Positions 1,050 to 38,023 of a DNA stretch of 48,289 bases are shown here, piece by piece. The translations under genes were made by a program, and so were the position numbers. The DNA lies in IMG/VR virus record IMGVR_UViG_3300042808_000082, positions 1 through 48,289 of that record; one strand, 5' to 3'. The stretch is from a virus (Duplodnaviria; Caudoviricetes). The notes below the pieces were generated by a model, which had not been told where the DNA came from, searched no databases, and was given only the letters and a program-made list of their open reading frames with translations. The number at the start of each line of letters is the position of its first letter. The stretch's first letter is position 1.

Positions 1050-1143
1050 ATAAAATAAGGGGGATACTGAAACTTCAACATATCGGGCCGAAATTCCACA
1101 AGTTTTTTCAATTTTGAGATGTGTCTTTATTAAGAGGCACATA

Positions 1144-5865: not shown

Positions 5866-5867
5866 CC

Positions 5868-6551
5868 ATGATTTGTGTAGGTGTTGGCGCTGGAATCCGG
5901 CGCCCCGATGCGTATACTAAACTGCTGGTTCGTATGAATGGAGACGGGACGGCATTCAGATCGCTAACCGGGCAAACAATTTCACAATATGGTGGAGCCA
6001 CCCAAGATGTATCTGGATCTCGGTATGTTGGGTCTGCTGGAGTATTTGATGGGAATGGCGATTGGCTATCGTATTCTGCTGATGCTACCATCAATTTTTC
6101 ATCTGGGTCATGGACAATCGAATGCGAATATTATCCGCAATCAGAAACGCAATACGGAGGTATATTTTTTACAAATTCTGATGGGTTTTCCAAAAACAGC
6201 GTGATGGTTCGATATAACGATACTGGAAAAATATGGGTTGCTGTGGGAGATGGATCTACGTATAAAGGAGCATCTACAGCAAATAACCCCGGGGTGGGGC
6301 AATGGGCACACATTGCGGCGGTAATTAATAGAACAACAAATATGCTGGAGTTGTTTATAAATGGGGTGTCTGTTGCAACAACTAGCATTTCTGGATTCTC
6401 AATTATTGATACTGGGAGTGTTGGTACATACATCGGAAAGTATGCATTTTCTCCAACCGATTATCCGATAAATGGAAAAGTTTCGGAATTTCGAGTGTCG
6501 AACATAGTTAGATATTCATCAGACTTTACCAGACCAACTCGGAGAAAATAA
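5868..6551 (+). CDS. LamG/concanavalin A-like lectin domain protein
   Basis: FDGNGDWL, WTIECEYY, WAHIAAV, LFINGV, GKVSEFRVS..RY motifs. Confidence 0.85.
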   Translation: MICVGVGAGIRRPDAYTKLLVRMNGDGTAFRSLTGQTISQYGGATQDVSGSRYVGSAGVFDGNGDWLSYSADATINFSSGSWTIECEYYPQSETQYGGIFFTNSDGFSKNSVMVRYNDTGKIWVAVGDGSTYKGASTANNPGVGQWAHIAAVINRTTNMLELFINGVSVATTSISGFSIIDTGSVGTYIGKYAFSPTDYPINGKVSEFRVSNIVRYSSDFTRPTRRK

Positions 6552-8945: not shown

Positions 8946-8947
8946 GT

Positions 8948-10315
8948 ATGGCGTTTAAAGTAGGTGGTGGGAACAACGGCGACGTTGTGAGTAAAGCCGC
9001 GTTCGGCGGATACGGGATGTCTGGTCTGTTTGACAATGTTGACCTTATTGGAGAGGCTCTCTGGGCAGGTATTCCAAATGGGTCTCCGGTAGGTGTTCAG
9101 CAGATTCAGATGCAGCAGAAGGCTTTCAAGAAAGCCAAAGGGTCAGGCAAACAAGTTGCAATGATGCCGATGCTGGCACCTATCCAGGACCAGTTTGTGA
9201 AGAAAGCGATTTTCTGTGACTCTTTCATGGATGCCGACGAGATTGCACATCTCAGGAAGGCTAACAAGGAAGAGATGGACAAGATGACCAGGCAATACCT
9301 GGACCAGGTTATCAAGAAAGCAGATACGACTGAAAGCAACCTGATGCACGTCATTGCCGATGAACAGGTCACATATCTCTATAAACGACCATACCCGTTC
9401 CAGTCCCTTATTCCGGTTGAGGCTAATAAAGGCAAGTGGGCTGCGTGGGATGTCATTGGTCCATACGACATCACCAGTGCATACTTCGATAGTGAAGACC
9501 CGAAACTGACCGAAACTAACATGAAATCCTACAACCGGTTTGACCGGATTAGGTACATGTACACCGTGGGTCGGCTGACAAAGGCTGCACAACTTGCAGG
9601 ACTTACCCAGATTCCAGCACGAGACCTCCGGGCTATTCGTGTGGATATGGCACAGGACGCTCTGCGTGCGCTTCGTGAGAGGTCTATGCTTGGTGTTACT
9701 CGTAACCTGCAGTCAGTGAAGAACTACTTTGAAACTGCAGGACCACTGGAATATCCGGGTCTGTCAGAACTCATCATGAAGAACACCGGTGCTACCGGGT
9801 CTGGCGTGCTCAAGGACAGCACTTGGATTAATGCAGCAGACGTTGGTGGTATCAAGACGTTCACTGATATCAACTTCTACCTGGACGAGGTTTACAGCAA
9901 GATGGTGCTGTATGGAATGAAACCAAACCTCGCGCTGTGTGACTACAAGACCTTCGGTCTGATTCGCCGTGGTATGACTGACTTCATCCGATACATCGGA
10001 GAACCTGTCAAGACTATCGTACCTGGTGTTTCAAAGATTGACCTGGTGTTCCCCAACGAAGGAGCACTTCCGCTGGTTCCACATCCGTTCCTGTCAATGA
10101 TGCCAGGAGACAACGGCTGTATCATGCTCGCAGACACTCGCCTGCTTGCTCGCAGAACTCTCTGGCAGGACACGTACGAGAACCTGGCCAACATCAATAC
10201 CAGTGACAAGTTCGTGATTTCATCTGCAGAGACACTGATTGACAAGTCTGGCGTGTCTGAGTATGACTCACTGCACGGTGGTCTCTTTGGAATAACCATC
10301 AAAGGGAGAGTGTAA
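8948..10315 (+). CDS. Major capsid protein (HK97 fold inferred)
   Basis: 455 aa, 2 bp after the protease; helical N-terminal region, then capsid-like ALRALRERSMLG and YPGLSELI. Confidence 0.85.
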   Translation: MAFKVGGGNNGDVVSKAAFGGYGMSGLFDNVDLIGEALWAGIPNGSPVGVQQIQMQQKAFKKAKGSGKQVAMMPMLAPIQDQFVKKAIFCDSFMDADEIAHLRKANKEEMDKMTRQYLDQVIKKADTTESNLMHVIADEQVTYLYKRPYPFQSLIPVEANKGKWAAWDVIGPYDITSAYFDSEDPKLTETNMKSYNRFDRIRYMYTVGRLTKAAQLAGLTQIPARDLRAIRVDMAQDALRALRERSMLGVTRNLQSVKNYFETAGPLEYPGLSELIMKNTGATGSGVLKDSTWINAADVGGIKTFTDINFYLDEVYSKMVLYGMKPNLALCDYKTFGLIRRGMTDFIRYIGEPVKTIVPGVSKIDLVFPNEGALPLVPHPFLSMMPGDNGCIMLADTRLLARRTLWQDTYENLANINTSDKFVISSAETLIDKSGVSEYDSLHGGLFGITIKGRV

Positions 10316-10366
10316 AAATGGCTGATCACTTCGTTGCATCCCTGTTAAAAGGGGAGGAATATTAAC

Positions 10367-10921
10367 ATGGCTGAAATTACTGGTGCAAACTTCTGCCAGA
10401 TTGTTGGATACCCGGAGAACTATGTTGTCGCGAGCAAAGCCGCTCAAAACGACTACATTCTTTTCCCAGATCCAATGGTGCTGATTCAGTCTGCATATTT
10501 CGATACTGCAGTTGAAACATTTGCCCACGGGCTTATTACAACCGCATCAATTGACGAACTCGTCACTCAGGTGACATATTCCGGAGGGTCCGGGGTTCCG
10601 CGTCTCCAGGGTGACTACTTCCTCAAGATGGGTCATGAACTGGTCCATGTCAAGGCAGACACCGATGAGACGGCTGCGACTGGCACACTGACCATGGTCA
10701 GGGGGGCACTTGGCACGACACCCGCCTCGCATGATGCGGGTAGTGCATACATCCAGAACTGTCTGAAACTCACAGGTTCGACTACGGGCGATGTGAAAAT
10801 CCTGTATAAGGGAGTTCCAGCGTTCCGCGATGGACTCAACATGAGTGCGGCATCTAACCGCGTGTGGTCTTCAACTAACCCTAACCGGGTATATGGTAGT
10901 GATTATACAACCCCTGTATAA
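10367..10921 (+). CDS. Putative capsid-associated/decoration protein
   Basis: Strong GGAGG RBS; follows the capsid gene; E..V...RGALGTTPASHDAG virion beta-domain motif. Confidence 0.65.
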   Translation: MAEITGANFCQIVGYPENYVVASKAAQNDYILFPDPMVLIQSAYFDTAVETFAHGLITTASIDELVTQVTYSGGSGVPRLQGDYFLKMGHELVHVKADTDETAATGTLTMVRGALGTTPASHDAGSAYIQNCLKLTGSTTGDVKILYKGVPAFRDGLNMSAASNRVWSSTNPNRVYGSDYTTPV

Positions 10922-10946
10922 TACACTTTTAATTAACTTTCCCCCT

Positions 10947-11148
10947 CATTTCAAAATTTTTTGAAATCAATGATTATATGATCTATGATCATTATGATCA
11001 TGTACTCCCCTCCCCCGGCAACGCCGGGTAACGATTCTCACAGAACTATCACACGGAGGCCCAGGGGCCGACACGCAATATAATTCATTAATTATTATAT
11101 TGTACATTGTCCACTTGCGAATTTTCACATTTCAAAATGTTTTGAAAT
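10947..11148. promoter_or_regulatory. Non-coding element A: two 20-bp palindromes flanking a GATC cluster, C-tract and GC hairpins
   Basis: atttcaaaa-NN-ttttgaaat at 10948-10967 and 11129-11148; motifs shared with 33257-33430. Confidence 0.6.
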
Positions 11149-11191
11149 AGGTTTGTCAACTATTATTATATCAGGGGGTTAATTGGAATAC

Positions 11192-11329
11192 ATGGTTCCA
11201 TTTGATGATTCTGTCTTTGGCCGGCCTCTTGATGCAGAGGTCCGGGCAAAGGAAGAGAAGCCGGTGAAACAGACCTGGCTTCGCAAACAGTATGAACGGG
11301 TGAAATGTTTGCTCACGGGTTCAACATGA
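11192..11329 (+). CDS. 45-aa hypothetical protein
   Basis: MVPFDDSVFGRPL...; ATGA overlap with 11326. Confidence 0.55.
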   Translation: MVPFDDSVFGRPLDAEVRAKEEKPVKQTWLRKQYERVKCLLTGST

Positions 11330-12084
11330 GATTTTGTCTCATTGTTTTATTTTTAGTAATTCTGGTATCAGTTGGACAATCTGCAGTATTTACATCAAAG
11401 ATGTCTGCCCAGGGTCTCGGCTCGATGGTTGTGAATTCGGATCGCCAGTGGGCGTCCGGGGATAACCTTGGGAGAATCAATCCAGCCGACCAATATATCG
11501 GCGGGGATGCAATGTCGCAGTTGCTTACTGCCCCTGGTAATTACCAGTATCAATCGATTGAAACTGTAGATGCTACCCAGAACAACCGGTATACGAAGAC
11601 CGGGTTTACTAAATTTGAGAATGGAGGTACGTTTACTGAAACCTCGTCTGCGAACAAAAATGTTCCAAACCTGTCACCGATTCGGTGTGACACTGGTAGC
11701 ATGGGCCAGTCTGGCGGGTTTGTTTCAGGGAACCCGCCATCACATCAATGGATTTCTGGATCTGTTGGTGGTATACTGCAAAGTGCTGAAATCGATACCG
11801 CGAAGTTTACGAGCGATATGAACTGGTCTCTGTCTCAGCAGGCTGCATGGGATGGTGCCGGACTGTATACAGGTGAAACAATTATGGGTGCCCATGTGGG
11901 CGCTGATAGAAACTCGACTGTGGCGAACTACGATATGTGGGCACGAGATAAGTTCTTCACATCGACAAACACCACTGGAGGATCGATTGCGAGACCGGAA
12001 TGGTCTCTCATTGATTTTTCGGATTCGTTTGTATCGAATTCTTCAAGTAACGAGACAGTGAATATAACGGTGAACCAGTCATGA
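11326..12084 (+). CDS. Secreted protein with signal peptide and multiple N-glycosylation sequons
   Basis: MRFCLIVLFLVILVSVGQSA signal; S/T/G/N-rich; C-terminal NSSSNETVNITVNQS. Confidence 0.75.
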   Translation: MRFCLIVLFLVILVSVGQSAVFTSKMSAQGLGSMVVNSDRQWASGDNLGRINPADQYIGGDAMSQLLTAPGNYQYQSIETVDATQNNRYTKTGFTKFENGGTFTETSSANKNVPNLSPIRCDTGSMGQSGGFVSGNPPSHQWISGSVGGILQSAEIDTAKFTSDMNWSLSQQAAWDGAGLYTGETIMGAHVGADRNSTVANYDMWARDKFFTSTNTTGGSIARPEWSLIDFSDSFVSNSSSNETVNITVNQS

Positions 12085-12383
12085 TAGACTTTATTCCCAT
12101 TTTAACTGCCGTTGGAACGGGTGTAGCATACTCGCTCTTCTGGTATCTGAACAAAGTGGCAGACCCCACGGTTGAATCCCCGGACATTGATCCATACCCA
12201 ATTATCGCTACCGCTTGCGTGGGCGCATTTCTAGGGGGTATCAGTGTCCTAACTGGTGGCGAGTTGACCCAGGTATCGATTGAAGTGCAAATAGGTGCTT
12301 ACGGGTTCTTTATTGCAGTTATAGAAAGAACGTTGAAAACCGCAGTCCATTTATTGGAGTCGCGGTATGGAGTGATTAGTTAA
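12081..12383 (+). CDS. Holin-like membrane protein (about 3 TM segments)
   Basis: 100 aa with three hydrophobic segments, in the late operon. Confidence 0.55.
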   Translation: MIDFIPILTAVGTGVAYSLFWYLNKVADPTVESPDIDPYPIIATACVGAFLGGISVLTGGELTQVSIEVQIGAYGFFIAVIERTLKTAVHLLESRYGVIS

Positions 12384-12836
12384 ATGGCAGCACAAGGAGA
12401 ATGTAGAATTGTTGGTCTCGGGCTTTCGGAAGAGGATGCCAAGTATCGCTACGCAACTGCTGTATCTACCACGATACAGGAAATTGCAGCGACGACTGCT
12501 GGTAAGATTTTTGTTGCGCTTGAAGCACTTGTCCCTGGTGAAATCCGTCTTGGTCTTTCGGTTGACGGCATGGCAGTTGCAGCGTTTAACAACAAGATGG
12601 AAGGCGCTACGTATCTTAACCCTACACCGGAGCACCCGCAGTCTTATGCAGTAGACTTGCCGATGCGGATCATTGGTGACGAGTCAGGCACGTTTCCCAA
12701 ACCGCATACCATTACGGTGTATTGGGGGAAACCCGATTTGCGCAGCATTGGGTGGCAGGGTCGTGCAGACTTTACCCTGCTCATTACGGGTAAGTCGCCG
12801 GTTGTGAAATACAACCAGAAAACTGATGGCGATTAA
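12384..12836 (+). CDS. Hypothetical protein
   Basis: 150 aa, abuts the previous stop codon, followed by a T-tract. Confidence 0.7.
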   Translation: MAAQGECRIVGLGLSEEDAKYRYATAVSTTIQEIAATTAGKIFVALEALVPGEIRLGLSVDGMAVAAFNNKMEGATYLNPTPEHPQSYAVDLPMRIIGDESGTFPKPHTITVYWGKPDLRSIGWQGRADFTLLITGKSPVVKYNQKTDGD

Positions 12837-12877
12837 TTTCGCTTAACTTTTTTTATCTTCCCGATGTAATTCATTGG

Positions 12878-13243
12878 ATGCCAGATATCCCTCATTCTAT
12901 TAGAATTGAAAATATCGAAGAATTGATAAACGCCAAACATCGGTGTTCGAGCATTTCAGACATCACAGACATACGAATCGGTGTTGCCGAAATGGGAAAA
13001 GATATGATTAATTTGTCGGCGTTTTTTCAAGAACTGTCTGCAAAGATTGATGAGAATGCGGCAGAGCAAGCACGTAATTGGGAACGTAATTGGAATCGGC
13101 TTCAGGATCTTGAGAAATCTGAACTCATTCGAAGAGGGGCCAGTAAGTGGGAAGCATGGATTCTTGATGCTGCAAAATCTGTTCTTGTTGCCATTGTTGT
13201 AATAATCGCCGCGTATTTAATGAGCGGTGGCCATATTACTTAA
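12878..13243 (+). CDS. Coiled-coil protein with C-terminal membrane anchor
   Basis: Heptad-like core, then SVLVAIVVIIAAYL. Confidence 0.65.
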   Translation: MPDIPHSIRIENIEELINAKHRCSSISDITDIRIGVAEMGKDMINLSAFFQELSAKIDENAAEQARNWERNWNRLQDLEKSELIRRGASKWEAWILDAAKSVLVAIVVIIAAYLMSGGHIT

Positions 13244-13244
13244 T

Positions 13245-13979
13245 ATGGCTTATATTTCCCGACTTGACGTTGAAGCGTTCACCGGATTCGGGGCCGAAGA
13301 CATGCTCCAGGGTTCGCTTATCATGACTGCTTCCCAATGGGAAGACTATTGTTCCAACGACCTGATTCCCCGGGTAGAACAGATGGTCAACCGGTTCTGT
13401 GGTGTGGCTTCGTTTGAGACGCACACAGTGATAGAATACAGGAACTCTCCGGGCGAGATGGACTATCTTAACGACTATATGTCTTGGATGACTCCTGGTG
13501 GCCCTGGTGTGAATACTACGCAAGTTCCAGAGTTCATCCTGGTGGAACCCTGTATCCAGGTTGCAAGTGTTGCAATCAAACCCAATGCATGGATTGATGA
13601 GTGGACCGATTTGTCCCAGGTTGGTGTGGACGAAGGGAACTGGTATTCGATTACCCAGGACGAACTGACTCATGTATACATCAATTTGCTCCCCATGCAA
13701 GGAAACTCCAATATCAGGTTTACGTATACGGCGGGATACCCGGCAAATTCCGAACAGTTCAGGGAAATCCAGATGATTGTTCTCAGGATAATCAGAATAA
13801 ACCTGGAAGAAAAACTAAAGTTCCAGCAGGCGGGAACGATCCGGAATGTCGGGACGAAGGATTACGCGGAGATGTATGACATCAGCAAAGACAGGAACCA
13901 GGACCGATACTACATCCCAGAAGATATTGTCAACCAACTGAAACGGTATCGTCGTCTCTTGTTATCCCAGGTGATTTGA
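13245..13979 (+). CDS. Head-tail adaptor/connector protein
   Basis: MAYISRLDV start, VNRFCG, NIRFTYTAGYP and C-terminal LKRYRR, typical of gp6/gp15-like adaptors. Confidence 0.78.
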   Translation: MAYISRLDVEAFTGFGAEDMLQGSLIMTASQWEDYCSNDLIPRVEQMVNRFCGVASFETHTVIEYRNSPGEMDYLNDYMSWMTPGGPGVNTTQVPEFILVEPCIQVASVAIKPNAWIDEWTDLSQVGVDEGNWYSITQDELTHVYINLLPMQGNSNIRFTYTAGYPANSEQFREIQMIVLRIIRINLEEKLKFQQAGTIRNVGTKDYAEMYDISKDRNQDRYYIPEDIVNQLKRYRRLLLSQVI

Positions 13980-13980
13980 C

Positions 13981-14544
13981 ATGGCAATAGAACGCGGCGG
14001 GTCTCCGATAATCACTTCTGCAGGTCTTGTAGTGGCATCCCCGAATGCGCACCATGGGACGCATGTGTTTCGTTCAGCCACTAATTTTAATGTGGTTGTC
14101 GATGCGTTGGTGAGTTGTATCATCGATCATGCAGGGGATCTGGGTAATATTAAATACATTAAGGAATGGTGGGAGGAACCCGCGATAGTGGGTGAAACGG
14201 ATGAGTTCCCGTGTTTCTATATTCTTCCATTGCATCCTGATTCAACGAAGGTCGCAAAAGATGCTCCGTATAAGTCGGAACCATATATCGGCGACCCGTT
14301 GTCTATGACAACATACCCAATCACTCTTATGGGGTATTACAAGTATACGAATGTTCGGCATCCCGTTCGGGACGTTCGAAACTACGCATGGAACTTATGG
14401 GACATCCTATCAACCGACAAACGCACATATTGTCTTCCTGCTGGTCTCCAGGCAATGACTCCTGATGTTGGATGGCATATTGCTGGAACCAATTACGTTG
14501 TTCAGTGGTGGTCAATGCGACTAAAAATGTCTGCAATCCTCTAA
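13981..14544 (+). CDS. Tail completion/terminator-like protein
   Basis: Position before the tail tube gene; FPCFYI motif. Confidence 0.55.
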   Translation: MAIERGGSPIITSAGLVVASPNAHHGTHVFRSATNFNVVVDALVSCIIDHAGDLGNIKYIKEWWEEPAIVGETDEFPCFYILPLHPDSTKVAKDAPYKSEPYIGDPLSMTTYPITLMGYYKYTNVRHPVRDVRNYAWNLWDILSTDKRTYCLPAGLQAMTPDVGWHIAGTNYVVQWWSMRLKMSAIL

Positions 14545-14603
14545 AATTTCAAATAGGCATAAATCTTTTTTAAGCGATTTGGGTTTACCAAGGTTGTACA
14601 ACT

Positions 14604-15152
14604 ATGGCAGATATGTATAATGATCGGCGAGCATTCTTCGCCGACTACGGGGCTATGACGCTTACCGTCGCGTCTGATGACGGCACATTTCCTGAAGTGC
14701 AGGTTGCTGCACTGAAAGGGGTTTCCATTACACCAAAGTTTGAGCATGTGTCTCTCTATGGAATGGAACGTGTTACGAGAGCCGCAGTTGCAAAACATTC
14801 TCTCGCGGTTGACGTGTCCATGGAAGTCGCCATGTGGAACCCTGATTCTGATATTATTCTCCAGGGGGTTCTGCTTGGTCACATCTCTGGTGCTTCTCCG
14901 ATTACTGAAGCAAACATCAATGACGCTGCATGGAAGAACAAAGTGGCTCGGTTCACAATTTCCATGGACATGATCGATACTGACGCTCAGAGAAAGGTCA
15001 CGGTCACGGCATCCGATGTATACTTCGAGTCTGTCCCATACGAGATGAAGGAACACGAGTTCATTACTCGTAACTTGTCCGGGACCGGGAAGTCGGTGAG
15101 TGTTGCCAGATACATCACAGATGGATCTGGTGGATGGACTCTCCAGTCCTAA
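14604..15152 (+). CDS. Major tail tube protein
   Basis: 182 aa, beta-rich, upstream of the chaperone and tape-measure genes; no sheath gene seen. Confidence 0.72.
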   Translation: MADMYNDRRAFFADYGAMTLTVASDDGTFPEVQVAALKGVSITPKFEHVSLYGMERVTRAAVAKHSLAVDVSMEVAMWNPDSDIILQGVLLGHISGASPITEANINDAAWKNKVARFTISMDMIDTDAQRKVTVTASDVYFESVPYEMKEHEFITRNLSGTGKSVSVARYITDGSGGWTLQS

Positions 15153-15202
15153 ATTTAACGCACCCTTTTTTATTAATCGGCTCAATTACTCTGTTGAATA
15201 AC

Positions 15203-15607
15203 ATGGCAGAGTCAAAAGACCTGTTCAAGCGCCTTCAGGCTCTTGAATCAAAAGAACTCGACGACAATGAACTTGTCCAGAAGATCCTTTCTAATGAAGC
15301 GGATCGTCACCTGATCTTTGACCTGGCGGGTGTGCCAATCAAAATCGTTGCAGCGTTTCCACGGGCTGTCCGGTATTTCTACGAACAGAACCGGAAAAGA
15401 CCGAAAGACACTCCAATCGAGTTTTCAGAAGTAGAAGCAGATGCATACAAGATTGCTGCTCAGTTATGCATTGAAGCACCGTTCAACACTCCGGCGTTTT
15501 GGGAATATTATGACACAAAGACCGGGAAGTTCTGGGGTGTGTTTAACTCAATCTACGCCGGCGTGGAAAAGAGCGAAGAGAAGATAGGCGACTTTCGCAA
15601 AAAGTAA
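15203..15607 (+). CDS. Tail assembly chaperone (G)
   Basis: Between tail tube and tape measure; ends GAC TTT CGC AAA AAG TAA. Confidence 0.75.
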   Translation: MAESKDLFKRLQALESKELDDNELVQKILSNEADRHLIFDLAGVPIKIVAAFPRAVRYFYEQNRKRPKDTPIEFSEVEADAYKIAAQLCIEAPFNTPAFWEYYDTKTGKFWGVFNSIYAGVEKSEEKIGDFRKK

Positions 15608-15752
15608 TCTTGGAGAATTCATGTTTATGAAATGTCAGATGTTCAAACGAACGCCGTCAGGGAATTGGCCGTGTAGTATTGAAGAAGACATTTTCATAAG
15701 CGAGTCAATTGCGAACTATAATTCTAAGATGGCAGCACGACAGCAGGGGTAG
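15594..15752 (+). CDS. Tail assembly chaperone extension (T), reached by a +1 frameshift
   Basis: The +1 frame is open from TTT-CGC to TAG at 15752, 3 bp before the tape-measure start. Confidence 0.65.
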   Translation, partial: FAKSNLGEFMFMKCQMFKRTPSGNWPCSIEEDIFISESIANYNSKMAARQQG

Positions 15753-15755
15753 AGA

Positions 15756-18700
15756 ATGGCATCAAATCATCCAACAAGAGACCAGATTGCAGTTGAATTG
15801 TATCAGAGACCATTCTCTCAACTTTCTGTTGAAGCGAAATCGTCTGTAAACAAAGTCTATGGCATAATGCTCCAGACCATGCGGTCTGGTGGAGATCCGA
15901 AGCAACCTATCCGGGCTGCTGCTAACAGCGAAGCCATACTGATAGTAAAGCAACTGAAAGAGATTGCCGCCAACCCTGGCGACCAGATAACATTACCTAA
16001 AGGAGTCCTTGAAGACGCTGCCCGTGTTGTTAAGATGCATTATGAGGCACAGGGTAACAAGAAACCATTGAGTGCCGGTGACATCAATGCAATCAGACGA
16101 GAAGTCAAAGTAGTTTGGAGAACCGCGAACCCAGAAGTCGTAAAATGTGTTGCTGACTATCTGACGAACTCGAAAGGTAGATTTTCGGGCGTAGGTCCGA
16201 AGACTCTTCGGAGGAAGTTACGGTCTTTTCTTTCTTCGGACGAGTTAGAGAAAATATCCGATAAAGAAATTCTCTCTACCCGAGACATTACAATTTCGCA
16301 CTTGTTTGACAAATGGACCCATGGGAACCTCACATCATTTGTAAGACCCAAAGTAGAGGATCTCCTTGAACATGATGTCAAGCAACTCCAGAAGAAGACG
16401 AAAAAGATTCAGCCCGTAGGGATTGCCCAGGTTGAAGAGACTCTGAAATCGTTAGAGACTCTTCACAACATCCATAATTCTCCTACCAGGTCTTTTTCAA
16501 ACCCGTTTGTAAGACGGGCAATGTATAACCTGGGTCTTACCCCTGACCAGATTATATCGCCTACCACAAAAGAAGCCATGGGCGATGTGGTGAATGCTGC
16601 ACATGCCATGGCAATGAAGGTGGCGAAAGGCCACCCGAAACTTGGTGGTGGTATACTCATATCGAAGAACCCCAGACTTCACACCAGAGCATCATCAGAG
16701 TATCGAGAATCCATTCCAACACGAAATGTGCATTCTGGTATAGGTAAGAGGACGACCATAGCCTCGACCCGCTATAAGGGTCGGTATAGTGAAGGTTGGA
16801 AATATGATATCCCGTCCCGGTGGTCCGGTAGTGAAGATACTGAGAACCCGTTCGGGGGAAGTGCTCTTGGCACATGGTTAGAATCAGACGAAGTTAATTT
16901 CGGGTTTGACCCGAACGCAGAAGCAGAATACAATGGTGCAATAACTACTGCAGCATCAAAAGCGCTGCGTAATGCGTTCAAACGCCAGTATGGATATGAA
17001 GCATCGAATGCAGGATTCTCTACATTTCTTGATGATATCGAATACCGCTACGATAAACCGCTGTTGATTCCCGTGCGTCGTGCTGGTGGATTACCTACAC
17101 GGCACGATGCTGGCCCTAAACGAATCAACAATTTCTCAACCGGACTGATACCGCAACACGCTGGTTCGGTAACTGCTGCCGAAGAACGTATGGGGATTTC
17201 TCAACTTGCACTGCAGCAGCATGAAGAAGACATTGCAATGTATAATGAGAACCTGGAACTATACCAGTCCAGGTATGGGAACTCGTTGGGTGCCCGTCTT
17301 CTTGAAGGACATGTACCCCTGGATATTGCAGACCAGATAATGCGGTTGCCTGGAAAGGCACGGTGGGCAAAGGCAACCGAAGTTATTGATTGGTATTCGT
17401 CGGGATTGAAACGACATGAGACCGATATTTTTGGTTCGTCTCCTGGAATGAAGGTAGATGACTTCACTCCGTTCTCCCCGTTCCAGACTCTTGCAGGGCA
17501 CACTGAAAAGATTACCCCAAACAGCCCGTTAATGAAATCGGTTGCAAAATTTTATTCGTCGTATGAGAACGATGCTCCGACTGCTCTACCTGACGAGATT
17601 GCAAACGTGGTGTCTGATGTCGCCCATGGCAAGACATCGATCCCTGGCACCACCCGGGTGGGGATTGTAGGGTCGAAGGGTATCCAGGATCCTCGTCTCA
17701 TTAACAAGTGGCTGAAAGCAAATTGGGACGATTCCAAGTTGATGATAACGTCAACCGAAGTGGGGAAGAACGGACGACTGAAAGGAACCCCGGAATACAA
17801 TAATGAGAACTATGGTGCTGCGTTCCATGCGTCGAATTTTGCTCACCATAACAAGTTCTTGCAATATAAATTCCCTGTGCGGAGTGGTGGGAAGTACAAC
17901 AAAGACATGACTACTGCAGACGTTATTAATGCGTCTGATGAAGTTGTGGCTTTCTTTGATTCTCAATATCTTTCGGCATCCGATGTTACTCAGTTAAAGA
18001 AACTCCGGGATGCTATTGGAGATAAACCTGCACGGATCGTGTGGATGCCTTCAAAGATTGGGCCTTCTCCAGACATGAAGACCCAACAGTCGTTCCTGGG
18101 ATACTACCAGCAGCATATGTCAGGTATTCCACTTGAGGCAATTTACCCAGGTTCGTTGCCCAAGTCGCTCATGATGGACCTTGCCATGCAAGATATACCA
18201 CTAAAATACCTTGCCAAAGGTGGCCCACTTAAATCAAATGAGATGGCTATAGTAGGTGAGGCTGGCCCGGAATTGCTGGTTCCAGCCGGCGCAGGAGGCT
18301 TTAACGTGCTACCTAACAAAGACCTACGAAAACTATACAATGGGACAATCGGGTTATCGTCTGTAGCCCGTGACGTTACCGGAGAACCACAACCAGATGC
18401 CCATGATTATACTGACCCCGCGACAGGTGAAATTTGGCCGTCAGTAACCAAGATTATGTCTCTGGGCAAGAAGGCAAACATTGCGCCGTACTATGGATCT
18501 GTCGGCGATGTTGCCCACTATACTGCTGCTAAAGCACTTGGTGCACAACACGGGATAGATGTGTCTCATGTGAACCCACCAAAGGTGGTAGATGCAGCAG
18601 ACTACCATGGGAACGTCCATTCTGCAGCAGATATTGCAGCAGAGGGAACCCGGCTTGGTGAAGAGTTTGTAAAGATTGCAAACGACATTGGGTTCATTCC

Positions 18701-21700
18701 GACGATGATTGAGCGTCGGTTTGTTAATATGGCTGACAAGTATTCCGGGACTGTCGATATGGCAGGGAACCTCCGGGACGAACTTGGCAACCTTGTACCC
18801 GCAGTAGCAGATTTCAAGACCGGGACGGTTAAGGGTAACAAAGACATCCAGAAGTTTGCTGAGCAGATGGGTGGGTATGCCCAGTTCTTCTCTAACCAGG
18901 TTGACGGTGTGGTAATCCATATGTCCAGGGACATGAACGGTCTTGGACCGGTGACTGTGGATATCATCAAGGGTGCAGAGAATTTCCGTGACAAACTTGC
19001 AAAATACAACGAGATGCACGGCCCTCGTCCAGTGAGACAGAGCGGTCCAAAATATACTGAACGCCAGTCATTTGATGCAATGGTCCGTGACCAGACATTG
19101 CAGAACACTCCAATAGAGTTCTACGATGCAATGAAGAAGGAACGGTATGTCCGTGCAGGACTGTCCACCACTGTTCCTGGTCATGCTGTTGCACTTGAGA
19201 AGACTCTCCCGAAGTTTGAAGCAGTTGGTCCTACGCCTGACGAAACCTGGGATAAGAACCCGTCACGACTTGCAATATTTGGTGCCCGACTGAAAGAGAT
19301 CGAAACATCGCTTACTGGAGAAGGTGTTCATCCGGCAATACGGAATGCTATGGGGAACCTGGCGGCCCGTGGATGGGACGCTGACACGCTGAACATGCTT
19401 GCCGGTGGCAGGATGGGTGAAGAGGAAGACGACAAACCTACAATCGATCTGTTCAACCGGGTATACCAGTCATTGAAACCCCATATCAAGGGAACTGGAC
19501 TACTTGATTCCGGTGAGAACATGGACAAAATGCTCTGGGAAGATGCCAGAACGATTCTCAATGTCCTCGAAGAAGCGGCAAAAACATTTGAATCGATTCC
19601 CCGGCTGCCACATATGGCAGCATCTTCCTCTTCCTCGCCAGGTATATTGCCCAACATCCCTGGAAGTGCAAATGCTCCCCGTAGTGCACCCCAGAATGGA
19701 GGATCGGCATCTTACCCGAACGATGTATTGGGTGGCCCTGTAAAGGCAACCATGAGTGCTCCAGTGAAGTCTGGTAGCAAATGTAAAGGTGTTGACCTTT
19801 GTGCCCCTACAATGTCGAGATTCGAAGGGTGGTTCAAGGCAATCAAGGGTATGGGAGGTATGGGCGGTGGCCCGGCACCCCGGACAAGTTCTGGTCGGGG
19901 TGATAGTGATGAAGGTGATAGTCCTGAGAAAGCATTTGCTAAAAAGTATCTCGGGAATGTTGAACATGCTACCGGGTTCTGGAAAAAGTTAGAACATTCT
20001 CCAATCATCGGGACTCCTCTTAAGATGTATCGACAGAGAGAGGAATGGACATCCCGTACAAAACGTGCTGACCAGGATCCCTTGACTCATGATGCTCCAA
20101 TGGGATACTGGAAACTTCTTGAGAAAGAAGACCAGGCACGGAGTAAGTATCTCCGGTCCATACGTGGTGCTACCACTTCGTTCCTGATTGCACAACACGT
20201 CATGCGTATCTTTGGACAGACTTCTCAAGTGTATGCAAAAGGTGCCGAATCAGTTGGAAAAGGACTTGGATACATTTATGATATGTTTCTCATGCCCCTG
20301 GTTCCGATTATTGCACCCATCACCAGGGCTGCAGTAGGTTTTGGAAATTTCATCCGACAACTTGGGATGCTGCCTCTTGCAGCAGTTGCACTCACCGGGC
20401 TTGCATATGCAGCCCATAAGGTGAAATCAAATGCGGAAGCAGCACGGGCTGCGTATGAGTCTGGTGAGAGAATCCCCAACTTGTTGACCCGGATGGCCGA
20501 CTCGTTTGACAATCTCGGCAATGTGCTGACTGGCATACTTGCAAAGATGTACCCAATGCCAGACGAGATTTCCAATCTGTCTATGCAGGAGTATCATCCA
20601 AAGGTAGACGAGTTCGACCAATTGGGAGACATAACACCAAAACTGTCTAAAGGTATCAATAAGGTTCCGGGAACCGGTAACTCTGATTCTGTGCTTGCAA
20701 TGCTCACTCCTGGCGAGATGGTTATTCCTAAGGGAATAGCAACCCAGATACGTGGATACGCAGAAGGCGGTATTGTTGGTGGTGCGTCTGGTCTGTTGAC
20801 AAGTGGTATGGGTATGCTGACCGGTGCATACTCATCTGCGATATCATCTGATGTGGGTATTGCTGCAATGACTGGCCTTGGCATGGTATCCAAGACGGTG
20901 GGTGCACTGATGGCACCTATGGCCCCGGCACTTGCTGGTATGGCTATTGCAGGTAAAGGGTTTGCAATGGTTAAGGGTGCAGTCGAGAGAGGCACCCAGG
21001 TTACTCAGCAAGTATCACAGGGCGGCTTTGCCGGACTTCGGACGATGGCTGCAGCACAACTTGCAGGCACCATTGGTGGACTTGCACCATTGCTCCCTAT
21101 TGGGGTCGCCATTGCGGGCATCTATGCATGGACCCAAGGATTCGGTCCAATGGCCGAATCAACAATGCGTGGCCTTGGTGATGCAATGAGAGGAACACTG
21201 AAGGTTCTTGGTGATGCGTTCAACTGGCTTAAGGACAGGTTCAAGGCACCCGAGATCCCTGGGGAAATTAAGACTGACAAACTGCCTGATGGCAAACTTA
21301 TCGAGGCTGAAGAGAAGCGCCGGGCAGACGCGAAACGTAGATATGGTGAGGCTCGGGTAGACGAGGTAAAAGTTGACGAACGGGGTGATAGAAGTGAAAA
21401 GGTTCGAACATGGAGAGATGAAGCCAAAGAGTTCCTGAAAGAAGGTCCAAAATCCATGATGGAAGGGGTTCCCGGCATGGCTCTGACAGGCGGGGTTATT
21501 GGAGCAATGGAATCAAAGAACCCTATGGATTGGGCAATATCTGCAGGACTTGGTGGAGCAGCACAGGCTGCATTCAATATCATTGGGAAGATCCCCTACG
21601 TTGGTGGAATCCTTGCACCCGGTATCGGTGCTGCAGTAACGCCAGGGTTCTCCAAATCGGTTGCACATGCAATAACCCAGGGTGAAGGCCCATTATCCCC

Positions 21701-22046
21701 ATCACAATACATTCCAGCACTAAAGGGGAACGAAGGTGCATCCAGAGGGATTGAAGCAACTGCATCAATGCTGTTGAGTTCTGGTCTTGGTGGGCTTGCA
21801 ATATCCCCCAATCTCCTGATAAAAGATTCCGAAATGAAACAACTGTATACCAATTCGGATTCCGGGAACAACTCACTGCAGCAGATTCTTACAACATTGA
21901 AAGACCTGATGGGATACATGAAACAACCTACGATTAACCAGAATACGTTTGAAATCAAGTCGGATGACGACTACCGGATTATGCAGATGATAGACCAGCG
22001 ACTTGCCCAGGTTGGGAAACAATCTGGAGCACAATTCACAGGATGA
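15756..22046 (+). CDS. Multidomain tape-measure protein with SLOG-like and PD-(D/E)XK nuclease domains
   Basis: Tape-measure position; LAKGG..VGEAGPEL and VPGTGNSDSVLAMLTPGE..YAEGG motifs; Gly/Ala-rich helical C-terminal part; internal enzymatic motifs. Confidence 0.85.
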   Translation: MASNHPTRDQIAVELYQRPFSQLSVEAKSSVNKVYGIMLQTMRSGGDPKQPIRAAANSEAILIVKQLKEIAANPGDQITLPKGVLEDAARVVKMHYEAQGNKKPLSAGDINAIRREVKVVWRTANPEVVKCVADYLTNSKGRFSGVGPKTLRRKLRSFLSSDELEKISDKEILSTRDITISHLFDKWTHGNLTSFVRPKVEDLLEHDVKQLQKKTKKIQPVGIAQVEETLKSLETLHNIHNSPTRSFSNPFVRRAMYNLGLTPDQIISPTTKEAMGDVVNAAHAMAMKVAKGHPKLGGGILISKNPRLHTRASSEYRESIPTRNVHSGIGKRTTIASTRYKGRYSEGWKYDIPSRWSGSEDTENPFGGSALGTWLESDEVNFGFDPNAEAEYNGAITTAASKALRNAFKRQYGYEASNAGFSTFLDDIEYRYDKPLLIPVRRAGGLPTRHDAGPKRINNFSTGLIPQHAGSVTAAEERMGISQLALQQHEEDIAMYNENLELYQSRYGNSLGARLLEGHVPLDIADQIMRLPGKARWAKATEVIDWYSSGLKRHETDIFGSSPGMKVDDFTPFSPFQTLAGHTEKITPNSPLMKSVAKFYSSYENDAPTALPDEIANVVSDVAHGKTSIPGTTRVGIVGSKGIQDPRLINKWLKANWDDSKLMITSTEVGKNGRLKGTPEYNNENYGAAFHASNFAHHNKFLQYKFPVRSGGKYNKDMTTADVINASDEVVAFFDSQYLSASDVTQLKKLRDAIGDKPARIVWMPSKIGPSPDMKTQQSFLGYYQQHMSGIPLEAIYPGSLPKSLMMDLAMQDIPLKYLAKGGPLKSNEMAIVGEAGPELLVPAGAGGFNVLPNKDLRKLYNGTIGLSSVARDVTGEPQPDAHDYTDPATGEIWPSVTKIMSLGKKANIAPYYGSVGDVAHYTAAKALGAQHGIDVSHVNPPKVVDAADYHGNVHSAADIAAEGTRLGEEFVKIANDIGFIPTMIERRFVNMADKYSGTVDMAGNLRDELGNLVPAVADFKTGTVKGNKDIQKFAEQMGGYAQFFSNQVDGVVIHMSRDMNGLGPVTVDIIKGAENFRDKLAKYNEMHGPRPVRQSGPKYTERQSFDAMVRDQTLQNTPIEFYDAMKKERYVRAGLSTTVPGHAVALEKTLPKFEAVGPTPDETWDKNPSRLAIFGARLKEIETSLTGEGVHPAIRNAMGNLAARGWDADTLNMLAGGRMGEEEDDKPTIDLFNRVYQSLKPHIKGTGLLDSGENMDKMLWEDARTILNVLEEAAKTFESIPRLPHMAASSSSSPGILPNIPGSANAPRSAPQNGGSASYPNDVLGGPVKATMSAPVKSGSKCKGVDLCAPTMSRFEGWFKAIKGMGGMGGGPAPRTSSGRGDSDEGDSPEKAFAKKYLGNVEHATGFWKKLEHSPIIGTPLKMYRQREEWTSRTKRADQDPLTHDAPMGYWKLLEKEDQARSKYLRSIRGATTSFLIAQHVMRIFGQTSQVYAKGAESVGKGLGYIYDMFLMPLVPIIAPITRAAVGFGNFIRQLGMLPLAAVALTGLAYAAHKVKSNAEAARAAYESGERIPNLLTRMADSFDNLGNVLTGILAKMYPMPDEISNLSMQEYHPKVDEFDQLGDITPKLSKGINKVPGTGNSDSVLAMLTPGEMVIPKGIATQIRGYAEGGIVGGASGLLTSGMGMLTGAYSSAISSDVGIAAMTGLGMVSKTVGALMAPMAPALAGMAIAGKGFAMVKGAVERGTQVTQQVSQGGFAGLRTMAAAQLAGTIGGLAPLLPIGVAIAGIYAWTQGFGPMAESTMRGLGDAMRGTLKVLGDAFNWLKDRFKAPEIPGEIKTDKLPDGKLIEAEEKRRADAKRRYGEARVDEVKVDERGDRSEKVRTWRDEAKEFLKEGPKSMMEGVPGMALTGGVIGAMESKNPMDWAISAGLGGAAQAAFNIIGKIPYVGGILAPGIGAAVTPGFSKSVAHAITQGEGPLSPSQYIPALKGNEGASRGIEATASMLLSSGLGGLAISPNLLIKDSEMKQLYTNSDSGNNSLQQILTTLKDLMGYMKQPTINQNTFEIKSDDDYRIMQMIDQRLAQVGKQSGAQFTG

Positions 22047-22050
22047 TTAA

Positions 22051-22635
22051 ATGACAGAGAGCACAGTTGGAATGTGGCACGATTATGCATGGGCTGCGGG
22101 TAGTCCGATAACTCCTGCCAGTTTTACCGGGGTTTTAGCACTCGGGTTCGTCCCGATATCGACCATGGGGGACGGGTATGGGCAGTTTACTATACCTGGT
22201 GCAAATGTTACGTTTACTGCAGTTGATTTAACTGAGATAGCAGAATCCCCAAACAACACAACATCATACAGGGGAGGCATCCAGTCAGTAGACAAATCGT
22301 TCTCCGCGAACCCCATACTGATAGCAATCCCACAAGAGTTCTCAACCGGGTATGACATCAATTACATCGAGTCTGCGGTCATTACGATAGCAGGGGTGTG
22401 GTTTGACGGGCTTATTATATCGGGTAGGGACGCAATTCTCGAAGACCTGAGAACATCCAAACATTGGGTAAATCCAATGTATTACCAGTCTCCGTTTGTT
22501 CTCCTGTTGTCAAACCGTGCATATTTTGTTTATATTACGGGATACTCGTCTAACATTGTTGGTGGACAGGGGGGCGTAATATCGTTCCGATTAGGGCTAT
22601 CTATTTGTTCAATAAAAGGTCATTATGGTAACTAG
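22051..22635 (+). CDS. Distal tail (Dit)-like protein
   Basis: Directly after the tape measure, 194 aa, beta-rich. Confidence 0.55.
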   Translation: MTESTVGMWHDYAWAAGSPITPASFTGVLALGFVPISTMGDGYGQFTIPGANVTFTAVDLTEIAESPNNTTSYRGGIQSVDKSFSANPILIAIPQEFSTGYDINYIESAVITIAGVWFDGLIISGRDAILEDLRTSKHWVNPMYYQSPFVLLLSNRAYFVYITGYSSNIVGGQGGVISFRLGLSICSIKGHYGN

Positions 22636-22641
22636 ATTACC

Positions 22642-24846
22642 ATGGTGTTTTTCAAGAACTACTCTTTTGAATATAACGCACAACGAGTAGACGTTTTCAA
22701 ATCTACGGTTGTGTGTTCGGTAAGTTCAGATGCCGACGATTACCGGGAAGGTGTATCGATAGCAATTGACCCTCCCGGATTCTATGGTGTTATTGTCGAT
22801 TGTAAGAACTCTGGAGACAAACGCACGCTTGACATATCAGCAGAATCCTGGGGCCGGGAACTTAGAAACACCGCAGTATCGGATTCAGGAGAGTTCAGAC
22901 AGATAGACGCAATCCAACTCATTAAGGATCATCTGTTGCCACCAGGGTGGACTCTCATCTATCCACCAGAGTTTGACACCTATATCAGACGAATATCATA
23001 CATATTGAGAAACGGGTCTTATTTAAGTCACATTTCGACGGTGCTTGATTCCCTTGGTCTTGACTTTACCATTTACTCAGAAATGGTTGGGAATGAGTTG
23101 CAAAAGTTCGTCAAAGCATATTACCGGGATGAGTTTACTGATCGTGCAACAAAAACGGTTATTGAACGAGTCAATATTGGAAACTTGACCATTACATCAG
23201 ATTATGGAAAGGTTGCCACTTCGATTACGGTGATGGGAGCCGAGTCAGAACAGGGTATAATTCAAGCATCTCTCGATGCCGAGATAGGAGACTGGCACAA
23301 CGCTCCCCGTGCATTGTCTATCAGAGACTTGCAGATGAGCAACCCGGAGTTTTCAGCAGACGCAAAATATTTTGGGTATTTCCCGGCATCCGAAGACGAT
23401 TATACAGTTGAGAGGCTTAACGCTGGAGATATTGTTAATATTGGAACCGATAGGGTTCTCATCGATTCAATATGGTTTATGCCTGCCATCAGCGTTTCGT
23501 CTTGGGAATCTCAATTGTTAAGTGAATCGGGATTCCCTGCGGTGCTTCGCCCAATAACAGAATATATTCCATCTGGCATGATTGTCGCATCGGTTTACTC
23601 AGGCACAATATCGCAATACCTGGAATCAGCAAAAACCAGTTACTCATTCAAGAATGGGAGAAACATTTCAAATTATTTTGAAGATGCATCTCAACACGGG
23701 ATCTATGACCCGGTTCTCGACTCTTTGGCAAGTGTATCTGTGGGCAGTTACCTGACGTTCGATAAGAACGTCCCAGCGGCATCGGGAATCATCTGGATAG
23801 GATCTGAACGTATGTTCTATCGTCTTGCAACTGATGGTGGTTCTCATATCCATGTAAGTGGTCTGGTGAGAGGTGTGCCAACTTGTGCAGATTCACAGTG
23901 TGAACATTGTGGAACCAACCCTCTCCAGGTGTCTGCACAATGTCATCTACTTCAACAGTCGGGATATCTGTACAATTTTTGCGATCTGGCAAAAGCAATT
24001 AGAGCAAAGTTCCCGTCTGCGGGAACGACTGATTTTACGTGGTGCCCTCTTTGTTTTGATAACTCGTCAGTGTGTCCTGCACTCAAATGTCCACACATTA
24101 AGACCGATGCTGATTTTGCTATCGTGTGTCCTAAAGGACTCACGAAACCCGAGATTGTGTGGACCCCCCAATACCAGCACCATACTGGTGCTCTTGTCTT
24201 ACCTGCATCGTATTACTACCCAACCGATTCTAACGGGGCAACTGCTGACACATACGAGATATATGCCAGGGACTCGTTAATCCATAAGTATGGGTATCTT
24301 CCAACCAGAATATCGGTAAAAGGGATTGCTGATATGGATGGTCTTGACAAGATTGCAGAAGGCAGGCTTCGATTGTCTGCAATTCCAAGCGTCGGGAAAT
24401 GCACATTGTTCAATTACGATCCATGGACTGTTCCTGCATCGTGTTTCCCGGGAGACGTAATTGATGTAACTGTTGCAACCATGTCACGATACGATCATTC
24501 GACGTTCCATTGGATTCCGTCTCAATGGTTTGATGTCTCTTCAACTGACCCGAATTCTCCCGATTGGGTTGTGGTTGCCACTGGTCAATGGGTAAAGATT
24601 CGCGAAAAGTTTACTATCCAAAAAACGACAAAGAATCAGCGAGGAATGCCAGAAATTTCGTTTGGTGCTGGTGAAATCGGGTTCCAGAACCTTACTGACT
24701 ATATTGCAGACACGATGGATGTGACCAGTCAACGACATAGGAACCAGGACGAATCAGTAGTGATAGGTGCATCCGAAACCGGGATTGCTGCTAAAGTCCA
24801 GGATGTTAAGACTGGCAAAACTACCTGGGTCAGGATGGTCCGGTAA
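22642..24846 (+). CDS. Baseplate hub/Tal-like tail protein with a Cys-rich insert
   Basis: Position; DYGKVATSITVMG and DSLIHKYG hub-like motifs. Confidence 0.65.
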   Translation: MVFFKNYSFEYNAQRVDVFKSTVVCSVSSDADDYREGVSIAIDPPGFYGVIVDCKNSGDKRTLDISAESWGRELRNTAVSDSGEFRQIDAIQLIKDHLLPPGWTLIYPPEFDTYIRRISYILRNGSYLSHISTVLDSLGLDFTIYSEMVGNELQKFVKAYYRDEFTDRATKTVIERVNIGNLTITSDYGKVATSITVMGAESEQGIIQASLDAEIGDWHNAPRALSIRDLQMSNPEFSADAKYFGYFPASEDDYTVERLNAGDIVNIGTDRVLIDSIWFMPAISVSSWESQLLSESGFPAVLRPITEYIPSGMIVASVYSGTISQYLESAKTSYSFKNGRNISNYFEDASQHGIYDPVLDSLASVSVGSYLTFDKNVPAASGIIWIGSERMFYRLATDGGSHIHVSGLVRGVPTCADSQCEHCGTNPLQVSAQCHLLQQSGYLYNFCDLAKAIRAKFPSAGTTDFTWCPLCFDNSSVCPALKCPHIKTDADFAIVCPKGLTKPEIVWTPQYQHHTGALVLPASYYYPTDSNGATADTYEIYARDSLIHKYGYLPTRISVKGIADMDGLDKIAEGRLRLSAIPSVGKCTLFNYDPWTVPASCFPGDVIDVTVATMSRYDHSTFHWIPSQWFDVSSTDPNSPDWVVVATGQWVKIREKFTIQKTTKNQRGMPEISFGAGEIGFQNLTDYIADTMDVTSQRHRNQDESVVIGASETGIAAKVQDVKTGKTTWVRMVR

Positions 24847-34502: not shown

Positions 34503-36455
34503 TTAATACCCAAATATCCCGAGTTCTTTCCATAGCGCTTTTACAGTTGCTACGGCTTCATCAGTCTCCATTCCTTCTGCAATTGCTTTGTCGGTGAGTT
34601 CTGCTTTTGTAGGCCATTTCCCGTTGTCTTCGTATAACTGGAACCTCATTTTTTTGATGTCTTCAATATCCATCCGGTTAGAGAAGGAGAGTTGTCCTGC
34701 TGCTTTATCAGCATCTAACTCTCCGGTCTTCGGGTCTGTGCCCGTGATTCTCATCGCTTCTTCATAGATGAATATTGCTCTATTAACGTCAATTGCTTCA
34801 ACAAAACTCGATAACCGAGTTTTTGCTGATGCTTCTGACATTCTAATGATGTCCTCAATCTGACGAGGTGTGATGGGAATTGCGGATTGTGTTCTGTTTC
34901 TAATCTTGGCATAGTAGTCCTCATACATCTGTGCTGCTTCATCGCTGATTTCAGGTGTGCATGACTGCTTTGCATGGGCGATATATTTTCTGATAGTTTC
35001 AACCGGGATCTTCTTTGTTTCACTTCTTCCTCGGTGTGAATTGATGATATGCTTTGCAATTGCTCTGTCTTTCTTTGCGTCTGGTTCGTCAGTAAGCAGG
35101 AATATGAGACCAAACCTGGATAGCAATGATGGAGCAAATGTAACCTGGCTGCCAAGGTCTGCAAATCTATCAAATCTGGATCTTTTTGGATTTGCTGCCA
35201 TTAGGCATGATTCCTTTGTAGACAAGTCTGCAGAAATCCCTGCCTTGTTAATATGCAGAACCTGTTCTTCCATTATTTCATGGAGAGATGATACTGCGTC
35301 TTTGTCCACTTTGTCTAGTTCATCCAGGAATAACATCCCTTTGTCGGCTAATACGGCTGCACCAGCCTCAATTTCCCAGGCTCCGTCTGCCCCCTTTGTG
35401 GCCGCCGCTGTGAGTCCAGCAGCTGATGTAGCCTTGCCAGATGCGTAAATACCTCTGGGGCATAGGTTAAAGGCAGACTTGAGTATTTTGGACTTTGCAA
35501 CGGAAGGATCTCCACAGAGCAGGATATGAAAATCTGCTCTAAAGCGGTCGCCATCGTCGTTGATTTTCTCGACGCCTCCAAGCAACTGGAGTAATATCGC
35601 TTGTTTGATACTTTCGTACCCTTTGACCACTCCTGCGATGCTTGTCCATAGATTGTCATATATTGCAGGGTCTTTTGCAAGTTCTTCGAACTCTCTGATT
35701 TCATCATCGGTAATCTCTATTTTACTGAAATCCTTGTTTTTCACTTCAACAGACTTTGCATCCATGAACGTGTCCAGCGTAGCCCCATTTTTTTTCTGAG
35801 CACCTTTGAACACACCATTGATTACAACGATGTTACCTGGTTGAACTTTTCCAGTTAAATCGTCCAGCAACTTCACCGTGAGAATTTCTGGTTTAGTTCC
35901 ACCACCGTCTTCCGGTGGGTCTTGCACTTGGATTAACTGGTAGTCTTTTTTGATTGATTGCTTGAGCAGGAATCTCCATGATTTTCCACCACATATGCAT
36001 TTGTCGGCAGGTGACACGATTTCATCTTCTTCAACTGGCATATAGACAATTTTGTCTTTACATGCATTGCACTTGAACGCTGCATGGACAAGCCTTGGCT
36101 TAACAGTAGTGACCTTACGAACTATCACCCGAAGAGAGGCAAATTTGTCAAGATATGCTGAATTTAGGTCTTTGACCTTAATTCTAGTAGGGAACCCAAT
36201 GAATCGTAGTCCAATGGAATGTTTTGACCCGTTCCATCCAGGGATTGCACGAGTTTCCATTAATGCTGAATATAATGCATTTTCAGCCAGTAATGGGTCT
36301 TTGACAATTGAATCAAACAATTCCTGGGTGGTATTGTTTACATTAATTGTCAGTGTAGTCTTTTTTGGGTATGTGGCTTTCAGTAATTCTACTTGCGGTT
36401 TGTGGGTGGTTGCTAGATTTTCTTTCCATAACGCTACAGTGCTAGTCATATTCAT
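34503..36455 (-). CDS. mcm: MCM replicative helicase
   Basis: Zn finger CNAC..CICG, Walker A GDPSVAKS, Walker B LDELDK, AANP, SRF arginine finger, TPRQIE. Confidence 0.97.
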   Translation of the reverse strand: MNMTSTVALWKENLATTHKPQVELLKATYPKKTTLTINVNNTTQELFDSIVKDPLLAENALYSALMETRAIPGWNGSKHSIGLRFIGFPTRIKVKDLNSAYLDKFASLRVIVRKVTTVKPRLVHAAFKCNACKDKIVYMPVEEDEIVSPADKCICGGKSWRFLLKQSIKKDYQLIQVQDPPEDGGGTKPEILTVKLLDDLTGKVQPGNIVVINGVFKGAQKKNGATLDTFMDAKSVEVKNKDFSKIEITDDEIREFEELAKDPAIYDNLWTSIAGVVKGYESIKQAILLQLLGGVEKINDDGDRFRADFHILLCGDPSVAKSKILKSAFNLCPRGIYASGKATSAAGLTAAATKGADGAWEIEAGAAVLADKGMLFLDELDKVDKDAVSSLHEIMEEQVLHINKAGISADLSTKESCLMAANPKRSRFDRFADLGSQVTFAPSLLSRFGLIFLLTDEPDAKKDRAIAKHIINSHRGRSETKKIPVETIRKYIAHAKQSCTPEISDEAAQMYEDYYAKIRNRTQSAIPITPRQIEDIIRMSEASAKTRLSSFVEAIDVNRAIFIYEEAMRITGTDPKTGELDADKAAGQLSFSNRMDIEDIKKMRFQLYEDNGKWPTKAELTDKAIAEGMETDEAVATVKALWKELGIFGY

Positions 36456-38019: not shown

Positions 38020-38023
38020 TTGT

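Follow-up and report, generated by a model that had tools for sequence, protein, structure and literature searches.

Predicted SLOG and exonuclease domains inside the tape-measure protein of a tailed virus from a likely Methanomicrobiales host

Known enzymes of tape-measure proteins (TMPs) cut cell walls, and known multi-enzyme early effectors are packaged in the virus head and are mostly bacterial. The family described here joins both themes, in likely archaeal viruses. It is represented by a gene encoding 2096 amino acids (aa) at positions 15756..22046 of a 48,289-nt virus genome (IMG/VR record IMGVR_UViG_3300042808_000082; its full length is called the window below). TMPs are ejected at infection and form a channel (PMC12617516, PMC12494034), and those of mycobacteriophage TM4, S. 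aureus phiIPLA35 and T5 (pb2) carry peptidoglycan hydrolases within the ejected chain (PMC12494034, PMC12617516, PMC13277306). The TMP of lambda (853 aa) corresponds to a tube of 132.7 nm, undergoes cleavage close to the C-terminus and makes up an entry channel (PMC12617516); TurboID-ManZ labels it during injection (PMC13190303). The solved archaeal TMP, that of HFTV1, is a hexamer of a 341-aa protein in a tube 36 Å wide, is lost on DNA ejection and contains no proteolytic domain (PMC12494034). Polyvalent proteins are large, virion-linked products of late genes that combine several unrelated enzymes, with MuF as virion anchor and a zincin peptidase as a central component (Iyer et al. 2017, PMC5512222). 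Their RadC domain is reported to be confined to conjugative-element types, those above 1000 aa to be almost all bacterial, and archaea to be poor in them (PMC5512222).

The 2096-aa protein compares with each of these systems in part. As in the hydrolase-bearing TMPs, an enzyme is embedded in a tape-measure chain, but the cargo of TM4, phiIPLA35 and T5 pb2 is described as C-terminal and acts on the cell wall, whereas here it lies upstream of the TMP core, is predicted to act on nucleic acids or nucleotides, and belongs to a virus with a likely archaeal host. TMP-related effectors of contractile injection systems (Sle1 and Tme, PMC13277306) are likewise modular, derived from TMPs and expelled from the lumen of a tube, in which a globular domain is proposed to be unfolded; unlike the protein studied here, they are effectors of bacterial nanomachines and not the ruler of an infectious virus, and the C-terminal domain of Sle1 has no known enzymatic motif. 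SLOG folds of the YpsA-like clade occur in tailed viruses, with sporadic nuclease fusions interpreted as sensing ADP-ribose (ADPr) derivatives (Iyer et al. 2022, PMC9503650). These viral SLOG proteins are usually standalone, the accessible text mentions no TMP fusion, and the ligand loops of the domain found here are divergent. The nuclease has its fold and motifs in common with the MGME1/Cas4/RecE/AdnA/lambda exonuclease group and differs in being embedded in the product of a tail gene. For other methanogen viruses, the accessible text of one report mentions a TMP only in a legend (PMC9796341). We found no description of this architecture in a literature search that left subscription journals mostly uncovered.

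The protein is organized as follows (coordinates in the window, strand, feature):

15756..22046, +, tape-measure protein of 2096 aa, including its enzymatic cargo
15756..17615, +, charged N-terminal region (aa 1-620), conserved within the clade
17634..18149, +, divergent SLOG-superfamily domain (aa 627-798), nearest to YspA/YAcAr and DprA types, from the predicted structure
18198..18350, +, internal TMP motif copy A (LAKGG..GEAGPEL), with weak matches to TMP PHROGs
18372..19034, +, PD-(D/E)XK exonuclease (aa 873-1093), MGME1/Cas4/RecE/AdnA-like, from the predicted structure, catalytic motifs intact
19053..19610, +, helical domain that follows the nuclease (aa 1100-1285), seen as model helices with a predicted local distance difference test (pLDDT) score of 70-92 over most of model residues 551-660
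19623..19925, +, Pro/Gly/Ser linker
20058..20435, +, TMP core with the first hydrophobic segment, placed at aa ~180-260 when relatives lack cargo
20643..20783, +, TMP motif copy B (VPGTGNSDSV..LTPGE..YAEGG)
20784..22046, +, Gly/Ala-rich hydrophobic region with a charged insert (aa 1831-1900) and the C-terminal tail-tip end

A preliminary description, made from the sequence, had proposed a tape-measure gene with extra domains, among them a Rossmann-like domain suspected to be SLOG and a nuclease. The observation is real: the core, the motif copies and both folds were recovered, the SLOG fold in the predicted structure of aa 627-798 and the nuclease as a PD-(D/E)XK fold. Assignment of the SLOG domain to a subtype is looser. 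The YspA/YAcAr profile PF10686 gave no match in 7/7 segments and E 0.05 in P0006, and an Atlas score of 0.89 for YspA/YAcAr serves as a lead only. In the nuclease, the seven residues of the catalytic D, DxK and QxxxY motifs are invariant in 7/7 diverged relatives, even though identity between nuclease subtypes is only 23-45%; the four-cysteine Fe-S set of Cas4 was not seen in the nuclease alignment. Ratios of non-synonymous to synonymous substitution rates (dN/dS), taken from the one unsaturated pair, were 0.07 for SLOG, 0.08 for the nuclease and 0.06 for the TMP core, values that place SLOG and nuclease under purifying selection. The helical domain (0.07) and the N-terminal region (0.08-0.13) were in a similar range; profile library scans gave no significant family match for the latter (aa 1-620).

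Identity as a TMP follows from the neighbouring genes and from homology of the core. The gene lies among these tail genes:

14604..15152, +, tail tube protein of the HFTV1-like, non-contractile type; a profile of 9 tube homologues matches the tail tube of PDB 9FKB (E 1.5e-8)
15134..15752, +, tail assembly chaperone G including its GT form (G alone 15134-15607), which probably shifts to the +1 frame at TTT CGC and reads on through a 52-codon extension to 15752
22051..24846, +, distal-tail-like and hub-like genes, named by position, with the same order in relatives

PDB 9FKB is the HFTV1 tail. A tube gene followed by a frameshifted frame that reaches the TMP start is the arrangement of G/GT chaperones. 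TTTCGC stands close to the chaperone stop in 6/6 loci examined, the distant L020 included, and all six have an open +1 frame of ~50 codons up to the TMP start, whose peptide is conserved in the five clade members. Tail chaperone genes more often shift to the -1 frame, and in some RNA viruses UUU-CGN acts as a +1 signal. The distal-tail-like and hub-like genes had no family match in Pfam and PHROGs scans. Some relatives carry two tandem tail-tube paralogues (L002 9481-10570, L003 9480-10564, L007 8312-9399), compared with one in this virus.

Direct matches of the 2096-aa protein to TMP PHROGs are weak (five PHROGs, E 0.013-0.57, at motif copy A). Its aa 1435-1830 align to P0029 (E 2e-31), which itself matches TMP PHROGs (E 3e-20), as do P0028 (E 8e-12) and P0020 (E 7e-7). 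The core begins at aa 139-181 in P0020, P0028 and P0033, so the TMP of this virus has ~1250 additional residues ahead of it. The protein contains two transmembrane-like hydrophobic windows (aa 1504 and aa 1769). The 11-residue aromatic repeats common in TMPs are not universal; no run of at least three was found in this protein, and P0020, P0028 and P0029 have runs of 7-13. The LAKGG..GEAGPEL motif was checked as a TMP signature in 19 unrelated viral proteins that bear it. Sixteen of the 19 match a TMP Pfam family, and the other three comprise one with wall hydrolases (L022, glucosaminidase and CHAP) and two without a match. Nuclease, SLOG, GNAT, JAB or ADP-ribosyltransferase (ART) family matches at E 0.01 numbered zero among them. 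In unrelated proteins the motif usually lies within ~80 residues of the C-terminus; in this virus one copy is internal. On gene order and core homology, in agreement with the preliminary description, the 2096-aa gene is the tape-measure gene of a non-contractile, probably long tail. Two further proteins have domains near a motif copy: P0031 contains a CAP domain at aa 736-785 (E 2.5e-9), a hint that cargo beside the motif is more widespread, and P0015 has a weak DUF6932 match at aa 196-261.

Six full-length relatives (2142-2452 aa) emerged when 1.84 billion representatives were searched, and full-length relatives at 36-41% identity keep the same domain order. Counting cluster members, many of them near-duplicates, SLOG, nuclease and core occur in the same order in 20/20 full-length clade proteins; by this comparison, the SLOG-nuclease pair is fixed in the virus's own clade and not variable. 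One of the 20, P0007 (L001/L009), has a ~200-aa insert with a JAB-type HNHP motif directly before motif A; a RadC match in the L009 insert is below the cut-off (E 0.014). Variable N-terminal cargo on a conserved C-terminus, as had been anticipated, does not describe this clade. Conservation of its aa 1-300 is close to that of the C-terminal part, with identities of 43-56% to five of six diverged relatives and 20% to P0007. The nuclease occurs as two subtypes whose distribution is discordant with the flanks. Between this virus (P0001) and P0004, identity is 54% in SLOG, 30% in the nuclease and 56% in the core; against P0006, it is 25% in the nuclease, 61% in the next domain and 66% in the C-terminal part.

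Exchange of whole domains was found in a sister lineage, of which L020 is a member; core, gene position and capsid-protein family agree with those of this virus, and the N-terminus is a different one. Of 22 full-length sister sequences, 14 have a GNAT-like domain in the slot between motif B and motif A, 5 an ART-like domain and 2 both, and in 1 the slot is empty, while the N-terminal 500 residues are 80-100% identical. Relative to P0029, L020 contains a 334-aa insert edged by a repeat of the motif's last residues. The ART-like cassette corresponds to aa 579-912 of the L020 gene at 8001-14447 and is also present in P0191 and P0231. A pattern of Arg, Ser and Glu-x-Glu is kept between two copies that are 39% identical; we take the insert to be ART-like from this motif, and it had no confirming match in any library searched. 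The sister GNAT domains fall below the cut-off (E 0.22 and 0.047). P0009, a third type, combines a GNAT domain above the Pfam cut-off (E 4e-7) with a JAB-like motif and motif A; its locus was not found and the core probe did not detect its core. In relatives, cassettes are gained, lost and exchanged beside the TMP motif. Cargo swapping is seen in the sister lineage, where the slot is internal and the cargo is not a loose N-terminal tag. The suggested link to polyvalent proteins is supported through the relatives. Like a polyvalent protein, this TMP is a large product of a late gene in which several unrelated conflict-type enzymes are combined. GNAT, ART and RadC are named in that repertoire, with GNAT typically neighbouring ART, as in L020 and P0231 (PMC5512222); GNAT, JAB/RadC-like and ART-like domains are found in the TMPs of relatives and are absent from this virus's own. 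On the other side, SLOG does not belong to the described repertoire as far as the main text of PMC5512222 goes, in which 'tape', 'slog' and 'YspA' have 0 occurrences.

The record is a whole circular virus genome whose ends share a 127-base repeat. A frame of ~470 codons, absent from the linear list of open reading frames (ORFs), spans the circular junction (window 47075 to the window start) and has a motif by which we take it to be a terminase; the family scan of window ORFs also identified a portal and a prohead protease. The marker for the host is:

34503..36455, -, MCM helicase (Pfam MCM, E 7e-76)

MCM matches occur in 19 GenBank phage records, every one of them an archaeal virus, and the first named MCM match outside the virus clade is Methanoregula sp. 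(38%). Fragments of the TMP family occur in four Methanomicrobiales records and three bacterial bins. These matches agree with the archaeal host suggested earlier and make a tailed archaeal virus with a Methanomicrobiales host likely. Among 50,697 GenBank phage records, no relatives were found by TMP, nuclease or capsid-position protein. Elsewhere in the genome, the stretch from portal to protease (window 3040-6551), an unusual site for adhesion proteins, holds a DUF2793/tail-fibre-like gene of 941 aa as well as a laminin-G lectin gene, and a glycosyltransferase family 2 match (E 7e-10; window 309-1298, minus strand) overlaps the terminase-portal junction. GP88-like and DUF932 genes adjoin MCM (window 37411-38923, -). 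An excisionase-like gene is present at window 39329-39745, with no integrase match among the scanned ORFs. One clade MCM protein, P0071 (1005 aa), contains PF14528 (LAGLIDADG), probably an intein.

We consider it probable that the TMP is a chassis for early-acting effectors that enter the tail unfolded and leave it together with the DNA. The cargo is part of a single uninterrupted chain, and the siphovirus tube is ~36 Å wide; the cargo would therefore be threaded into the tube unfolded and would count towards tail length. By the lambda ratio, the whole chain would correspond to a tail of ~325 nm, as against ~110-125 nm for the C-terminal 700-800 aa only. No conserved internal ribosome-binding site and ATG able to yield the core alone was found; together with the lack of the 11-residue repeats of cargo-poor relatives, this favours the whole chain as the ruler. 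At infection, the C-terminal hydrophobic part would exit first and form a membrane channel. The cargo would arrive just ahead of the DNA and refold in the cytoplasm, perhaps once it has been cut at the motif copies. With the same degree of confidence, we favour ejection with the C-terminus leading, insertion of the hydrophobic segments into the membrane and entry of the cargo into the cytoplasm immediately before the DNA.

Two typical features of polyvalent proteins are missing. An HExxH zincin-like peptidase was found in none of 12 TMPs, and the MuF anchor had no match in family scans. Several observations fit a late polyprotein. Its enzymes would be excised while the tail is assembled and would serve the cell that produces the virus, by breaking down host DNA, resolving intermediates of replication or packaging, or excluding rivals; the TMP gene would only provide late, stoichiometric expression. 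The folded domains are too big for the 36 Å tube, so the cargo must be threaded unfolded or cut out beforehand; motif copies and the low-complexity linker flank it, and the TMPs of lambda and T5 are cleaved during maturation (PMC12617516). In addition, scans of 62 other ORFs of the window (27 by Pfam, 26 of these also by PHROGs, and 35 more by PHROGs) turned up no standalone exonuclease family. Yet if any late gene sufficed, there would be little reason for GNAT, ART-like, JAB-like, SLOG and nuclease domains to have been inserted repeatedly into this one protein. The sister cargo, moreover, is preceded by a 540-aa N-terminal region in 22/22 sequences; its removal would take two cuts and lose the head-proximal end. 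We regard such a polyprotein, the main rival explanation, as unlikely.

Alternatively, the domains could be packaged without being effectors. They would then fill length, or their action would be limited to the channel or the outside of the membrane, where they might bind the DNA end that enters first or remove extracellular DNA. The missing aromatic repeats, present in P0020, P0028 and P0029, would fit such a role, as the cargo may then supply most of the ruler, and so would the divergent SLOG ligand loops. Against it stand the catalytic residues kept across highly diverged nucleases and dN/dS values as low as that of the core, both of which argue for enzymatic selection. GNAT and ART chemistry, too, requires acetyl-CoA and NAD, respectively, and both are cytoplasmic. 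This explanation appears improbable, more so than the polyprotein. An assembly chimera or chance read-through of adjacent genes has nothing in its favour and a negligible probability. A chimera is refuted by the common domain order of the diverged full-length relatives, and both domains are present in every full-length clade member. A second assembler gave a single contig of 48,192 bases that is identical over 14500-23500, and the L010 contig is 100% identical over 26,288 bases; the former may come from the source sample and the latter from the same sample, so each is weak support alone.

If effector delivery is correct, the exonuclease would act on DNA before any viral gene is read. Its targets may be host or rival DNA and defence intermediates, a proposal we make tentatively; trimming of the incoming genome ends for circularization is conceivable at slightly lower confidence. 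The SLOG domain would bind a nucleotide signal or single-stranded DNA, gating the nuclease or soaking up an immune signal, and in relatives this chassis would carry enzymes that modify proteins (GNAT, ART-like) as well as a JAB/RadC-like domain. For tailed viruses of Methanomicrobiales more broadly, the TMP could be a reloadable magazine, in which motif repeats define the slots where nucleases, nucleotide sensors and protein-modifying enzymes (GNAT, ART, JAB) recombine, unfolded cargo alters tail length and the load is injected ahead of the DNA against archaeal defences; we advance this as a speculative model with somewhat less than even chances.

The sister viruses amount to a built-in experiment, with near-identical TMP N-termini and only the cargo differing (1581 to 2219 aa). 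The list of cargo (exonuclease, SLOG, GNAT, ART-like, JAB-like) points to methanogen defences in the first minutes of infection, which are relevant to anaerobic digesters and methane cycling. If the magazine model is true, the polyvalent effectors packaged in virus heads would have an archaeal counterpart housed in the tail, and nature would offer a way to bring proteins of choice into methanogens.

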